From Escherichia phage IMM-001: 32,486 bases of DNA. The position numbers and the translations under genes were made by a program. The notes under the pieces are model-generated. The model ran no database searches. It saw nothing but the letters and a program-made list of their open reading frames with translations, and was not told the DNA's origin. Below, piece after piece: positions 1-29,788 of this stretch (position 1 is its first letter; each line of letters starts with the position of its first letter). Where the stretch lies: sequence record MF630922.1; one strand, given 5' to 3'.

Positions 1-40
1 TATAGCAATATTGCATCGAATGTAATGGTGTTTTTGATTG

Positions 41-55
41 TTGCAGAATTTGCAA
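41..55 (+). repeat. 5-5-5 inverted repeat TTGCA-gaatt-TGCAA inside element TTGATTGTTGCAG, also present at 32444..32464
   Basis: Direct reading at both window edges. Confidence 0.5.
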
Positions 56-228
56 TTATTGATGTGTTAGTGAATGAATGTTGGAAGAACTACCATACAA
101 GTTGATTTTGATTCTGGCTGAGCCATTTTACGGTATACGTGTAACTTCTGTATATTCATTGTAGTCACAAAAGTAAGTGACCACTAACATACGTTTTTAC
201 GCGAAATATACACGCCATATACAATATA

Positions 229-297
229 ATATCTATATATATCAACCTTTTACTATATTATTATTATTATTATTATATATATGTATACTGTGTATAC
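229..297 (+). repeat. AT-rich ~65-bp repeat, copy A, containing (TTA)6 microsatellite at 258..275
   Basis: Core atatctatatatatcaaccttttact + (TTA)n + tactgtgtata is shared with 27746..27806; lies in the 574-bp ORF-free leader region. Confidence 0.8.
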
Positions 298-340
298 CGC
301 TCATAGATTAAATAGTTGATATATTCCTCTGTGATATTCT

Positions 341-375
341 GACACTTGTCAGAATTGGATGACGCTTGTCAGAAT
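341..375 (+). promoter_or_regulatory. Two tandem operator-like elements gacacttgtcagaat / gacgcttgtcagaat spaced 20 bp; first is a 6-2-6 palindrome CTGACA-CT-TGTCAG
   Basis: Direct reading; intergenic; function unknown. Confidence 0.4.
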
Positions 376-574
376 AAAAAGGCACATATATAGGAAATCA
401 CATCAAAAAACTGTACACAGCGGATACGGCAAGGTTACATCCAGTAATGTCGTGGCTTTGGAGACTGAAAAGTGTATCAATGATAAAATATACTAAAATA
501 TACATTGACCGACACGTAAATCTCTGGCACTGTGGTAATCACTGAAACGCAGTACACAACAACGAGGCATTGAA

Positions 575-1123
575 ATGCAGAAAGTAACACTTGGTGAAGT
601 CATCCGTGAGATGGTGCGAAAGGCAATCGAATCGGAAAGTGGTGAGTTTAAGGTTCCGGTCAGCCAGATATTCAAAATGATTCGTGGGAAACCGTACCCG
701 GAAATGGAGTATGACGGCGAGACCGATGAGATATTGAATCTGGCAGACAGGTCATTACCGGAGCTTAAGAACTCATATATCTACAATACTGTATCGCGAA
801 TGACAGAGTTACGAGACGCAAATAAGAGGGCGCGATACAAGTTTATCTGGATTGATGACGAAGGGGAGCAGACAAGCGCAAGGCAATTTGATGGCGACGG
901 CGCTGACAAGCACCTGGTTATATATATTGAGAACGGTGCGCACTGGACTGGTAATCGAGAGAAGAAGAAACAGGAAGCTGAGAAGGAAGCGGCTACCATT
1001 GAGAAATTCAAGAAACGACTTTTGGCAGTCACTCCGAGCATTATCCACCTTAGCGGCGAAAAGCTTGAAGGTGCTCTGTTCGCGCTATCAGCATACCAGG
1101 AAATGATTAAGGAAGCCAAATAG
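575..1123 (+). CDS. hypothetical early protein (182 aa)
   Basis: First long ORF after regulatory region; ATG 575 preceded by aacgagg; no recognisable motif. Confidence 0.5.
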   Translation: MQKVTLGEVIREMVRKAIESESGEFKVPVSQIFKMIRGKPYPEMEYDGETDEILNLADRSLPELKNSYIYNTVSRMTELRDANKRARYKFIWIDDEGEQTSARQFDGDGADKHLVIYIENGAHWTGNREKKKQEAEKEAATIEKFKKRLLAVTPSIIHLSGEKLEGALFALSAYQEMIKEAK

Positions 1124-3588: not shown

Positions 3589-3633
3589 AATAGCACAAAT
3601 TGCTAAACAAGAGTGGCAAGGATGTCATATAAT
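3589..3633 (+). promoter_or_regulatory. Conserved IR promoter-like cassette copy 3 (AATAGCAC-aaa-TTGCTAAA, 22 nt, TATAAT)
   Basis: Motif family; leader ttcatcaaacaacgagatgg follows. Confidence 0.6.
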
Positions 3634-3662: not shown

Positions 3663-3902
3663 ATGTTCGGATTAAACGAGGCGCATTTCAATGCGGTCAA
3701 GAAGCAGGCTAAAAAGCTTAACGATGATTACTCTAAGTTATCACCAAAAGAGCGAAAGAATGACAAGCTAGTTGCTGCGCTAATATCAGGTTTATGGGAG
3801 CCAGTATTTACTATTATCAGTCGAGACCGCTTCGTTTGGGTGGCTGGATATTTGAAGGGTCGCGTTGGCCATGATGAGAATGGGAATAGCCTTTATGAAT
3901 AA
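3663..3902 (+). CDS. hypothetical protein (79 aa)
   Basis: ORF downstream of cassette copy 3. Confidence 0.45.
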   Translation: MFGLNEAHFNAVKKQAKKLNDDYSKLSPKERKNDKLVAALISGLWEPVFTIISRDRFVWVAGYLKGRVGHDENGNSLYE

Positions 3903-4134
3903 GATTAAGTCATTAATGTTTAAGGTTGGAATCCTACATAAGCATAAATATAGATTATTTCGACGCATAAATTGGTATGAGGACGAATATCAGGATGGGT
4001 GCAGGACAAAACTAATCTGTACAGTTTGCGGGAAGATTTTTAACTCAAAGGTTGACCTAATGGTTTGCAAAAGCACGCTGGATTTCATTAGATATGAAAA
4101 AGAGATTGCATCACTTAGGGGTTTTAATGGATAA
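3895..4134 (+). CDS. hypothetical Cys-rich small protein (79 aa), possible zinc ribbon
   Basis: Internal ATG 3895 overlapping upstream stop; CRTKLICTVCGKIF...C cysteine pattern. Confidence 0.4.
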   Translation: MNKIKSLMFKVGILHKHKYRLFRRINWYEDEYQDGCRTKLICTVCGKIFNSKVDLMVCKSTLDFIRYEKEIASLRGFNG

Positions 4135-5683: not shown

Positions 5684-7252
5684 ATGTCTAATTTAGTTTG
5701 GGAGGAAATGACGTCAGCCGAAAAGATGGCGGTTAAGGCAATATCAACTCATAGCTTTGAGGGTTTTCTGAGGGTGTGGTTCCAACTGACACAGGGCGAG
5801 CGGTACATCCCAAACTGGCATCATAAATACCTTTGCAGGATAATTGACGAGATTATCGCTGGTGAGCGTAAGGACACCATCATTAACGTCGCTCCCGGTA
5901 GTGGAAAGACAGAAATTGCCTCAATCCACTTTCCAGCATACTCGATGGTTAAGCTGAAGAAGGTCAGGAACCTTAACATATCGTTTGCCGACTCACTGGT
6001 TAAGCGTAACTCCAAGCGAGTGCGTGACTTAATTAAGTCGGTTGAGTTCCAGGAGTTATTCCCATGCAAGTTTGGCACATGCAAGGATGATGAGCTACAG
6101 GTTCTGGATGAGTCTGGCAAAGTACGGTTTGAGTCAATCTCCAAGGCTGCTGGAGGCCAAATCACCGGCGCGAGGGGCGGCTATATAACCGATTCATATA
6201 GTGGCGCGGTTCTGTTAGATGATTTTGACAAACCAGCCGATATGCTTTCTGCCGTGTTCCGCGCAAACAATCACGTGATGCTAAAGAACACCATCCGCTC
6301 TCGTAGGGCTAGCTCAGTTAAAGGTAAAGCAACTCCGATTATCTCTATTCAGCAGCGACTTCACGTCAACGATAGCACGTGGTTCATGATGAATGGAGGT
6401 ATGGGTATCAGCTTCGATTTGATTAAGATACCAGCGCTAGTAACTGAAGATTACGTGGATACACTTCCTGACTGGATTAAGCAGCAATTCATTGATGACG
6501 TTCTATCAAGCGAATATATTGAGCGTGACGGCGTGAAATATTACAGCTACTTCCCAGAAAAGGAGTCGGTTAACGACCTGGTAGCAATGTGGGATTCAGA
6601 CAGCTATACATTCCTTAGCCAGTATCAGCAGGAGCCTGTAGCGCTTGGTGGTAATCTGATTAATGTAGAATGGCTCCAGCGCATTAGCGACACTCTGCGA
6701 CCGCCAGCTAAGTATGATTACAGATTCATGACTCTTGATACCGCCATGACAACAAAGTCATACAGCGACTTTAGTGTACTGCAACTTTGGGGTTATAAGG
6801 ATGGGAAGATTTACCTGCTTGACCAGCGACGAGGTAAGTTTGAAGCGCCGGAGCTAGAGGCTGAGTTATTGGATTTCGAGAAGATAGCAAGGGCATCCAA
6901 TCAGACAGATGGTATCCTTCGTAAAATCATCATCGAGAAGAAAGCCTCTGGCATCGGGCTGATTCAATCGGTAGGTAGGGTTATGCGGACACCAATCGAG
7001 CCATATGTGCCAGATAACGACAAGCTAACTCGCGTAATGAGTGCACTGCCTCAGATTAAGGCTGGTAACGTTATCCTGCCTGAGTCTGCAACATGGCTAA
7101 ACGGATTACTAACGGAGATTGCGGCATTCACGGCAGATGACTCGCATGTTCATGATGACCAGATTGACTGTTTAACTATGGCTGTCAACCTTGTTCTAAA
7201 CATTGCAGAGGATCCTAAATCAAGGATGATGAGATTAGCAGGAATCAAATAG
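5684..7252 (+). CDS. terL: terminase large subunit (522 aa)
   Basis: Walker A-like VAPGSGKTE near N-terminus, size and position before portal. Confidence 0.88.
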   Translation: MSNLVWEEMTSAEKMAVKAISTHSFEGFLRVWFQLTQGERYIPNWHHKYLCRIIDEIIAGERKDTIINVAPGSGKTEIASIHFPAYSMVKLKKVRNLNISFADSLVKRNSKRVRDLIKSVEFQELFPCKFGTCKDDELQVLDESGKVRFESISKAAGGQITGARGGYITDSYSGAVLLDDFDKPADMLSAVFRANNHVMLKNTIRSRRASSVKGKATPIISIQQRLHVNDSTWFMMNGGMGISFDLIKIPALVTEDYVDTLPDWIKQQFIDDVLSSEYIERDGVKYYSYFPEKESVNDLVAMWDSDSYTFLSQYQQEPVALGGNLINVEWLQRISDTLRPPAKYDYRFMTLDTAMTTKSYSDFSVLQLWGYKDGKIYLLDQRRGKFEAPELEAELLDFEKIARASNQTDGILRKIIIEKKASGIGLIQSVGRVMRTPIEPYVPDNDKLTRVMSALPQIKAGNVILPESATWLNGLLTEIAAFTADDSHVHDDQIDCLTMAVNLVLNIAEDPKSRMMRLAGIK

Positions 7253-7293
7253 CACTTTTTGCTAAAGACACTCCGCCATTGGTGGCGTATAGT
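7248..7293 (+). promoter_or_regulatory. Conserved IR promoter-like cassette copy 4 (AATAGCAC-ttt-TTGCTAAA, 23 nt, TATAGT), overlapping the terL stop
   Basis: Motif family. Confidence 0.55.
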
Positions 7294-11490: not shown

Positions 11491-12432
11491 ATGGCCATTA
11501 AATTTGATGCAGAACAAGCAAAAATCACCGCTCACCTTGAGCAAATGGGTGTAGATAAGGCTGATGCTGCTGGTATCTGGACCGTTAAGCAGTTGACCGC
11601 GAATCTGGCGCGCGCTTACGAAGCAGAGTATTCGGAAAACTCCGTAGTTAATATCTTCCCTGTAACTAACGAAATCCCAAGTCACGCAAAGTATTTTGAG
11701 TATCCTGAGTTTGACGGAGCAGCAATTGCACAGATTATCGCTGAATACTCTGATGACCTGCCGCTGGTTGATGCGTTCATGACCGAGAAACAAGGTAAAG
11801 TGTTCCGCTTCGGTAACGCATTCCTGATCTCCATCGACGAAATCAAAGCAGGTGCAGCAACTGGTCAGTCACTGTCATCTCGCAAACAGGCTCTGGCATT
11901 CGAAGCGCACGATAACCTGCTTGATAAACTTGTATGGTCTGGCTCTGCACCGCACGGCATTCCTAGCGTATTCAATGCGCCGAACGTTAACCAGGTTGTT
12001 GCTGGTACTTGGAACTCCGCGGCTGCTGCTATGACTGACATTACCGCTCTTATCGATGCTATCGAAACAGCGACCAATGGCGCTCACACCGCGACTGATA
12101 TCCTGCTTCCAGCTTCCGCTCGCCGCCTGATGCAAGAATTGGTGCCGAATACCTCTATCAGCTACGCGCAGTTGTTTGCAACCAATAACTCCGGCATCAC
12201 TTTGCGCTATCTGCAATTCCTGGACAACTACGACGGCGCAAACGGCAAAGCTGCACTGGCATTTGAAAAAAATCCGTTAAATCTTAGTATTGAGATTCCA
12301 GAAGTTACTAACGTACTTCCGGGCCAACCGAAGGATTTACATTTCAAATACCCGGTGACTTCAAAGGCTACAGGCTTGATTTTATATAGGCCGCTAACTG
12401 TTTCCGTACTGAAAGGCATTACCTACGCCTAA
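11491..12432 (+). CDS. major capsid protein (313 aa)
   Basis: Size, position, own promoter and terminator; not motif-verified. Confidence 0.6.
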   Translation: MAIKFDAEQAKITAHLEQMGVDKADAAGIWTVKQLTANLARAYEAEYSENSVVNIFPVTNEIPSHAKYFEYPEFDGAAIAQIIAEYSDDLPLVDAFMTEKQGKVFRFGNAFLISIDEIKAGAATGQSLSSRKQALAFEAHDNLLDKLVWSGSAPHGIPSVFNAPNVNQVVAGTWNSAAAAMTDITALIDAIETATNGAHTATDILLPASARRLMQELVPNTSISYAQLFATNNSGITLRYLQFLDNYDGANGKAALAFEKNPLNLSIEIPEVTNVLPGQPKDLHFKYPVTSKATGLILYRPLTVSVLKGITYA

Positions 12433-12452
12433 TGGCACTAAATGACAAAACA

Positions 12453-12481
12453 ATACCACCGAAAGGTGGTATTTTTGTTTT
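12453..12481 (+). terminator. Rho-independent terminator
   Basis: ataccacc-gaaa-ggtggtat then T-rich run. Confidence 0.75.
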
Positions 12482-12507
12482 AACACAACGCTAATAGTGG
12501 TGCGGTT

Positions 12508-15594: not shown

Positions 15595-15639
15595 GATAGC
15601 ACTTTTTGTTAAAGGCTATTGTGTTGATTGCTGTATAGT
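15595..15639 (+). promoter_or_regulatory. Conserved IR promoter-like cassette copy 5, variant (GATAGCAC-ttt-TTGTTAAA, 22 nt, TATAGT)
   Basis: Motif family; leader tcattcatcgaaacg. Confidence 0.5.
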
Positions 15640-22112: not shown

Positions 22113-22162
22113 TTTGATGTACAATGGCACCAATAGTCAAAAACAAAACAGGATAATGTGAT

Positions 22163-29744: not shown

Positions 29745-29788
29745 ATAGCACTAATTGCTAAAGATAAAATTAACAGGTGTGGTATGAT
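29744..29788 (+). promoter_or_regulatory. Conserved IR promoter-like cassette copy 6 (AATAGCAC-taa-TTGCTAAA, 22 nt, TATGAT), overlapping the Dam-like stop
   Basis: Motif family; leader accacatcaacaacgagatgg. Confidence 0.55.

Follow-up and report, generated by a model that had tools for sequence, protein, structure and literature searches.

The 32,486 nucleotides analysed here (the window; sequence record MF630922.1) from Escherichia phage IMM-001 constitute the left part of the genome of a T1-like siphovirus (Drexlerviridae) coliphage, with Escherichia phage TR1 as the closest record (88.7% identity across the first 1.3 kb). According to the circular maps of its relatives, window positions 1-575 are the right-hand part of a divergent intergenic region of about 700 bp, which is flanked by leftward replication genes and by a rightward block of small early genes, and in which the TR1 record annotates the packaging start. 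The first rightward early gene encodes a DUF7174 protein of 182 amino acids (575-1123, plus strand). Upstream of it, in this divergent early control region, lie two adjacent repeats, which we call site 1 (336-355) and site 2 (357-375); the distance from the box to the ATG of the DUF7174 gene is 229.5 nt. We interpret the two sites as an operator module for a dimeric response regulator of the NarL/FixJ type, most probably EvgA of the host, and from the sequence comparisons presented below we would give this interpretation a probability of about 45%.

The initial annotation recorded two 15-bp repeats, gacacttgtcagaat at 341-355 and gacgcttgtcagaat at 361-375, and these are indeed identical at 14 of 15 positions and start 20 bp apart; the repeat in fact reaches 16 nt (340-355 versus 360-375, 15 of 16 positions identical). 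The first copy had been described as a 6-2-6 palindrome. It is a palindrome, but with longer arms: a perfect 9-2-9 structure, ATTCTGACA-CT-TGTCAGAAT, occupies 336-355, with conserved arms and a variable centre. The 18-nt core of site 1, TTCTGACA-ct-TGTCAGAA (337-354), displays the 8-2-8 geometry of an EvgA box with a T to G replacement at position 5 of each half-site. Site 2, GGATGACG-ct-TGTCAGAA(T) on the plus strand, combines a degenerate left arm with a conserved right arm, and its centre is found 20 bp from that of site 1 in the window. The exact 11-mer CTTGTCAGAAT occurs at just the two repeat positions in 32.5 kb. A search for further copies, as suggested by the initial annotation, retrieved none of the full palindrome motif elsewhere in the window or in the whole 44-kb TR1 genome at up to three mismatches, but clear copies in related phages.

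Perfect palindromes with arms of at least 9 nt are found twice in the window, and at least one is present in 46% of shuffled windows. Since such a palindrome is common by chance, the case for a function rests on the adjacent, nearly identical copy and, above all, on conservation. The second of these palindromes, AATACCACC-gaaa-GGTGGTATT followed by TTTTGTTTT (12452-12482), has the textbook form of an intrinsic terminator and lies a short way behind the major capsid gene (11491-12432).

We examined 18 phages in all, 14 of which were aligned. Both sites, together with the tail AAAAAGGCA, form a conserved two-site module of about 50 bp (334-384) that stands out as an island of conservation, with a mean column identity of 0.913 versus 0.73-0.81 in the flanks among the 14 phages. 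The contrast is stronger in the distant phages FP, CJ19 and 50EP, in which the block is 76-88% identical to the window and the flanks are 45-55% identical, and BLAST matches of the segment 280-575 to CJ19 and 50EP are confined to window positions 318-389. The block was found in 67 phage records and the downstream DUF7174 gene in 133. All 67 are records of Escherichia or Shigella phages, except for a single UNVERIFIED 'Campylobacter' record. This sequence, 'Campylobacter phage A110b' (L105, MG065688.1), is typical of a T1-like coliphage, and its operator block is 100% identical to that of the E. coli phage BEK1-1, which makes the host label doubtful.

In Rtp, IME542, ESCO41, IME253 and DTL the DUF7174 gene and its promoter are kept, and other sequence is present where the block would be; the block is therefore an accessory, mosaic module. 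This distribution bears on the possibility that the repeats are a replication or packaging element, either as part of an origin, with the sites beside an AT-rich unwinding tract, or as a secondary site for the small terminase near pac. The location would suit such a role; however, the block is missing from close relatives that share the packaging region and the AT-rich and GTATAC elements, so that an essential part in replication or packaging is unlikely. Better candidates for pac are found at the left end of the window: TTGCA(A/G)/TGCAA repeats, among them the palindrome GCAATATTGC, are clustered at positions 1-60, and in the alignment the cluster extends about 70 bp further left in the relatives. 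These are probably recognition repeats of the small terminase (pac), because the TR1 record places the initial packaging site there. As the match of the palindromes to a transcription-factor site is, in addition, specific, we regard a replication or packaging role of the repeats as improbable.

The half-sites of the block occur in two alleles, TGTCAGAA (the G allele) and TGTAGGAA (the TAGG allele; TGTAAGAA in CJ19 and 50EP), and the 18 phages can be arranged in four states. In FP, Msk, P818, Rogue1 and the IMG/VR contig L169, site 1 is a perfect TAGG palindrome, TTCCTACA-N(1-2)-TGTAGGAA. In BEK6, SU57, CJ19 and 50EP the left arm of site 1 carries the G allele and the right arm still reads TAGG or TAAG. 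Both arms of site 1 are changed, with site 2 still TGTAGGAA, in Sd1, JeanPiccard, 2725-N35, 12210I, BEK1-1 and A110b. Finally, in the window, TR1 and phiA2-1, site 2 is also TGTCAGAA, and its centre is 1 nt longer. The pair TTCTGACA..TGTCAGAA of the window hence corresponds to TTCCTACA..TGTAGGAA in FP, Msk, P818 and Rogue1, so that the dyad has been kept although both arms have changed, while the 2-nt centre of site 1 varies freely among the phages. The distance between the centres of the two sites is 19-20 bp in all 18. The dyad symmetry is under selection, and the two sites are located on the same face of the helix. On these grounds we infer that the block is, with high probability, a protein-binding module, and the earlier proposal of an operator pair for a dimeric regulator is supported to this extent: the repeats are very probably two binding sites for such a regulator.

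As operators, however, the two sites are not equivalent. Site 2 has one conserved arm; its left arm, which reads GGATGACA in 12 phages and nearly so in the other six, is never the symmetric partner of the right arm; the only feature of this left arm common to site 1 is the GAC-for-TAC allele. In 15 of the 18 phages site 2 takes the form GGATGACA-t-TGTAGGAA, or a close variant of it, with a 1-nt centre. The near-identity of the two 15-mers, which stood out in the initial annotation, is confined to the lineage of the window, TR1 and phiA2-1, in which site 2 has been overwritten by a copy of site 1.

The inverted repeats could also act as a hairpin in RNA or single-stranded DNA, for example as a processing site, an attenuator or a terminator. 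The window segment folds at -18 kcal/mol, with z = -4.1 for the plus and z = -4.6 for the minus strand, and the changes in the arms of FP keep the pairing. The predicted structures nevertheless differ among phages: that of the window joins the left arm of site 1 to the right arm of site 2, that of FP is a local hairpin (z = -2.8), and for BEK6 there is none (z = 0.0). The strong fold of the window is accounted for by the lineage-specific repeat, the hybrid alleles break the stem in four of the 18 phages, there is neither a T-run nor a terminator call, and the invariant, non-complementary GGATGACA arm would be left unexplained. A hairpin function is thus very improbable, and we consider it the least likely of the explanations weighed here.

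Similarly, the repeats could be read as a sigma-70 promoter, with TTGTCA (346-351) as -35, TGtCAGAAT (367-375) as extended -10, a spacer of 18 nt and a rightward start at about 382. A promoter scan does return TTGTCA-18-CAGAAT with TG, at nine of 12 matching positions. On the other hand, the supposed -10 reads AGGAAT in 11 of the 14 aligned relatives and has no A at -11; TR1 has CAGAAC, without T at -7, and in phiA2-1 the supposed -35 reads ACGTCA. Promoter-like matches in this AT-rich region are just about two-fold over the shuffle expectation, and a promoter would explain neither the invariant left arm of site 1 (TTC...ACA), nor the dyad kept through the changes of the arms, nor the invariant GGATG. 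We consider this reading unlikely, to about the same degree as a role in replication or packaging.

EvgA is a response regulator of the NarL/FixJ family with a LuxR-type helix-turn-helix (HTH); within the two-component system EvgS/EvgA, which senses acid, it is the output protein, and it acts as an activator, not as a repressor. The idea of an EvgA motif was prompted by the TAGG/TAAG form of the half-sites and then tested on the sequence of E. coli K-12, in which 20 kb around evgAS and 14 kb around ydeP (34 kb) were scanned for TTCYTACA-NN-TGTARGAA with up to three mismatches. Six sites were found, all of them intergenic and belonging to canonical EvgA targets: emrK/evgA, frc (yfdW), yfdX (two boxes, 38 bp apart), safA-ydeO and ydeP. 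The frc site has no mismatch, and the only other matches were two with three mismatches each, one inside the ydeO coding sequence and one, without the central gap, in the CPS-53 prophage region. EvgA is known to bind inverted repeats upstream of yfdX and yfdW (PMC3720670).

The 18-bp, 8-2-8 inverted-repeat geometry is common to all six K-12 sites and to window positions 337-354. The TAGG allele agrees with the EvgA consensus at 16 of 16 positions (FP, Msk, P818, L169). On a half-site matrix built from the 12 K-12 EvgA half-sites, site 1 of FP, Msk, P818, Rogue1 and L169 scores 25.1 bits, level with the best K-12 site (frc, 25.2 bits); the K-12 sites span 17.4-25.2 bits, and the hybrid alleles of CJ19, 50EP and BEK6 reach about 20.6 bits. 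A further resemblance is found in the orientation of the sites: in ydeP, safA and the second yfdX box, read in the direction of the gene, the distal arm is degenerate and the proximal arm conserved, as in site 2 of the phages when read rightward. The distance of 229.5 nt between the phage box and the start codon falls within the K-12 range (106-260 nt), with only weak candidate promoters just downstream. E. coli K-12 possesses evgA-evgS, and it is from Escherichia or Shigella phages that the block-bearing records derive. Marbox-like promoter units elsewhere in the window (see below) suggest a general reliance on host activators, which makes a role of EvgA more plausible.

Several observations weigh against EvgA. 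The half-sites of the window (TTCTGACA) match at 14 of 16 positions, and both mismatches are a G at position 5, which is T in 12 of 12 K-12 half-sites. Site 1 of the window scores 16.2 bits, just under the weakest K-12 site, a value that is reached by 19 of 300 shuffled windows (6%); site 2 of the window scores 5.9 bits. The 1-nt centre, seen in site 2 of 15 phages and in both sites of Rogue1, is at odds with the 2-nt centre of six out of six K-12 sites. The replacement of alleles proceeds stepwise and in the same direction, from the left arm to both arms and then to site 2, which resembles a shift of specificity and would be unexpected for an unchanging host binder. Moreover, promoter scans detected no good promoter downstream of the sites at the spacing typical of an activator, as the one that is recognisable lies about 175-195 bp off, and close relatives that infect E. 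coli live without the block, so that it must be dispensable.

The allele of the window fails the YTACA core and is therefore not a clean member of the EvgA-box family, although it is homologous to sites that agree with that family in every sequence feature. For the block family as a whole we regard the chance that EvgA is the binder as even, and for the allele of the window as less than even. The replacement by the G allele could reflect a retuning of the site to weaker binding of EvgA, or else a change of binder. The affinity for EvgA in the window lineage is predicted to be lower or altered, because G replaces T5 in each half-site and site 2 has been homogenised to site 1.

The main alternative is an operator for a regulator other than EvgA, encoded by the phage or by the host: a dimer preferring CTGACA half-sites and binding cooperatively to both sites, in which case the resemblance to the EvgA box would stem from ancestry or from a shared NarL-type half-site. 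Candidates would be the DUF7174 protein, by autoregulation, and a Cro-like HTH protein encoded beside the primase, outside the window. The initial annotation recognised no repressor gene in the window, and we agree: no HTH family was detected in 10 early open reading frames nor in five further ones of the window, and none of the phages encodes an EvgA-like HTH. This absence would be explained if the binder is encoded by the host, given that the consensus site is the E. coli EvgA box. Comparison of same-genus pairs with and without the block (TR1 versus IME542, CJ19 versus ESCO41) yielded no phage gene that co-occurs with it; the sole open reading frame to fit the pattern, of 67 amino acids and 35% identity, has no DNA-binding features. 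One protein of the window (3895-4134) is homologous (91% identity) to a TR1 protein labelled 'transcriptional repressor', a name that looks unfounded: no Pfam family backs it, and just sub-threshold matches to C2H2/RING-like zinc fingers were obtained.

The AlphaFold model of the DUF7174 protein has a mean predicted local distance difference test score of 78.7 overall and of 82-94 in ten-residue blocks of residues 1-90, and shows an H-beta-H...H-H-beta-beta domain, weakly winged-helix-like, followed by two long helices. Several features speak against this protein as the reader of the palindromes: its putative recognition helix does not vary with the operator allele and is the same in block-less phages, its gene is present in twice as many phages as the block, and in each of its two subfamilies some members come with the block and others lack it. 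A more natural target would be the shared GTATAC repeats. TATAC/GTATA pentamers at 130-300 and 485-505 amount to 11 in positions 1-575 versus 2.35 +/- 1.65 in shuffles, and the remainder of the window has 1.0 per 575 bp; GTATAC or ATATAC pairs are often 10-11 bp apart (207/218, 283/293, 489/499), and the repeats are conserved whether or not a phage carries the operator block. They may act in the manner of iterons, and the winged-helix-like DUF7174 protein is a possible ligand.

Other host regulators fared no better as candidates. The familiar consensus sites of LexA (CTGT-N8-ACAG), CRP (TGTGA-N6-TCACA) and FNR (TTGAT-N4-ATCAA), and likewise those of RutR, DeoR, PhoB, RcsB and UvrY/GacA, differ from the phage sites in a critical base or in the arrangement of half-sites, and the UhpA sites in the K-12 uhpT promoter (CCAGG..CCTGG, TCAGGCCTGA) differ as well. 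Capture from a host chromosome was not indicated, as no extended similarity to positions 318-400 was found in 5,426 E. coli genomes by BLAST, which is blind to an isolated 18-mer. Nor did a regulon of the G variant emerge: 100 scattered exact palindromes in 100,044 species genomes correspond to about the chance rate, none of them is in Escherichia, and the single match in Enterobacterales (Cedecea) sits inside a coding sequence. Altogether, we hold an operator for a protein other than EvgA to be rather unlikely, though clearly less so than the promoter, replication and hairpin readings.

For EvgA, a mechanism can be outlined as follows. A dimer of a NarL/FixJ-type regulator, most probably phosphorylated EvgA of the host, would bind the palindromic site 1 and recruit another dimer to the neighbouring site 2, which is half-conserved and faces the same side of the helix. 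Both dimers would then modulate early phage transcription, probably rightward to the DUF7174 early operon; this direction is suggested because the conserved arm of site 2 points rightward, as the conserved arm does in K-12 EvgA promoters. What the sequences themselves show is the layout of the module, its conservation, the joint change of both arms and the agreement of the consensus form with K-12 EvgA sites; the binding as such, the binder of the G allele, the sign of this regulation and the promoter under control are inferred. To our knowledge, T1-like phages have no RNA polymerase and no sigma factor of their own. In a recent reannotation of phage TLS, the sigma-70-like promoters numbered just three, and basic questions of regulation were listed as open (PMC11447400). 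Our literature search retrieved neither transcripts nor mapped start sites of T1-like phages, and no analysis of this control region.

Three promoters are candidates for being controlled by the module. The first is a putative, weak activator-dependent core on the plus strand, TTGTCA-17-TATAGG (366-394), in which the right arm of site 2 would serve as -35 and the sites would be placed at about -35 and -55; its leader CACATCAAAAAAC resembles that of the other promoter units of the phage. Its -10 has no T at -7 and is not conserved in CJ19, BEK6 and P818, and the promoter scan made no call for this core. The second is a leftward promoter-like site, TATACA-16-AATAAT (269-296, minus strand), a consensus match with equivalents predicted in 12210I, Rogue1 and P818, relative to whose leftward start the sites would be located at about -83 (site 1) and -103 (site 2). 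The third is the proximal sigma-70-like promoter of the DUF7174 gene on the plus strand, TTGACC (506-511)-17-CACTGT with TG upstream (506-534), which is conserved in phages with and without the block and whose homologue in Rogue1, TTGATA-17-TATAGT with TG, matches at 10 of 12 positions. The palindromes are situated 130-170 bp upstream of its -35 and about 175-195 bp upstream of its predicted start. Directly upstream of this -35, a perfect tandem duplication, TAAAATATAC x2 (484-503), could be a UP-element-like A/T tract or a binding site.

The module can be compared with several known systems. It shares with the K-12 EvgA boxes the 18-bp 8-2-8 repeat, a second, degenerate box (as in yfdX) and a better conserved gene-proximal arm. 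It differs in that the second phage site adjoins the first (19-20 bp), mostly with a 1-nt centre, in contrast to the 38 bp between the yfdX boxes, that the window allele has G for the invariant T5 in both arms, and that it resides in the genome of a virulent phage. In Bordetella, the EvgA homologue BvgA recognises at fha and ptx a high-affinity palindrome of TTTCCTA-type heptads, with weaker, contiguous secondary sites about two turns apart on the promoter side that are filled cooperatively. The strong palindrome with an adjacent half-conserved site in the phage is alike, but organism and protein are different, and just two sites are evident in the phage. The operators OR1-3 and OL1-3 of lambda are likewise adjacent pseudo-palindromes about two turns apart and suited to cooperative dimers; the T1-like sites, however, have no adjacent repressor or cro gene, are not equivalent, are off recognisable promoters and occur at a single locus.

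Boxes of host regulators are also present in other phages, such as CtrA boxes in alphaproteobacterial phages, LexA boxes in temperate phages and Pho boxes in cyanophages. In these, as here, the site of a global or stress regulator of the host is part of a phage control region without a cognate protein encoded by the phage; the difference is that the T1-like phage is strictly virulent and that its site is an accessory, mosaic module. Host-regulator boxes in phages are thus known in kind, and the site of the window is a variant, in which a core base is changed and the secondary site is contiguous, and which belongs to a virulent phage. In our literature search, neither an EvgA box nor a box of any acid-sensing two-component system was reported from a phage, and EvgA was not linked to T1-like phages.

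An exact-pattern scan of IMG/VR for TTCTGAC-N4-GTCAGAA returned 91 loci, just two of which are T1-like (L022 and L034, the latter being Sd1); the remaining loci were set aside as chance matches or as motifs belonging to other phages. The consensus EvgA box returned at least 120 loci in IMG/VR, and among the matches listed one is T1-like (L169) and none of the others has the tandem arrangement. Several copies of TTCTGAC-N4-GTCAGAA are present in the unrelated contigs L036 (2097-3032), L084 (2159-5331), L006, L072 and L062: L036 contains six, about 130 bp apart within a longer repeat, and in L084, L006 and L072 TTCTGACCTAGGTCAGAA precedes genes. Such copies probably represent operator families of other phages.

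A second kind of repeat in the window also resembles a host-regulator site. The '21-nt repeat' of T1-like phages has been listed as unexplained (PMC11447400). This intergenic repeat (AAATAGCACnnnTTGCTAAA) fits the consensus of the MarA/SoxS/Rob box (marbox), AYnGCACnnWnnRYYAAAY (PMC3709825). The window contains eight marbox matches with at most one mismatch, two of them perfect, versus 0.7 expected. Marbox-like repeats are located on the plus strand at 1226-1244, 2276-2294, 3590-3608, 7249-7267, 15596-15614, 22124-22142 and 29745-29763, and on the minus strand at 26872-26854 and ~32430-32410; the last of these, the ninth copy, departs further from the marbox consensus and has no clear -10. All eight units are followed 19-20 nt on by a -10-like hexamer, which is strong in seven (CATAAT, CATGAT, TATAAT, TATAGT or TATGAT) and weak at 22124, and in the seven units with a strong -10 the start codon is preceded by a conserved leader, CATC(A/G)A(A/C)AACGAG. 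From their sequence, the units look like activator-dependent promoter units with a class-II layout.

Taken one step further, virulent T1-like coliphages might be wired to the stress regulons of the host, by an EvgS/EvgA operator in the early region and by promoter units with MarA/SoxS/Rob boxes, a generalisation that we regard as doubtful. If it is true, phage development would be tuned by acid, oxidative or antibiotic stress of the host, for example during gut passage. A conserved early site identical to the box of a host response regulator would already imply that a purely lytic phage senses the physiology of its host (mild acid, through EvgS/EvgA) without a regulator of its own, which would bear on the behaviour of coliphages in the gut and on phage therapy with Drexlerviridae. 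The allelic series of the operator would then record an ongoing retuning of this coupling to host stress. The series also provides ready-made binding-site variants, namely the consensus and forms with one arm, both arms or both sites changed.

A further feature of the control region is an exact match to the IHF consensus (TATCAACCTTTTA, WATCAANNNNTTR) beside a (TTA)7 microsatellite at 239-275; the IHF match is not conserved in TR1 or phiA2-1.

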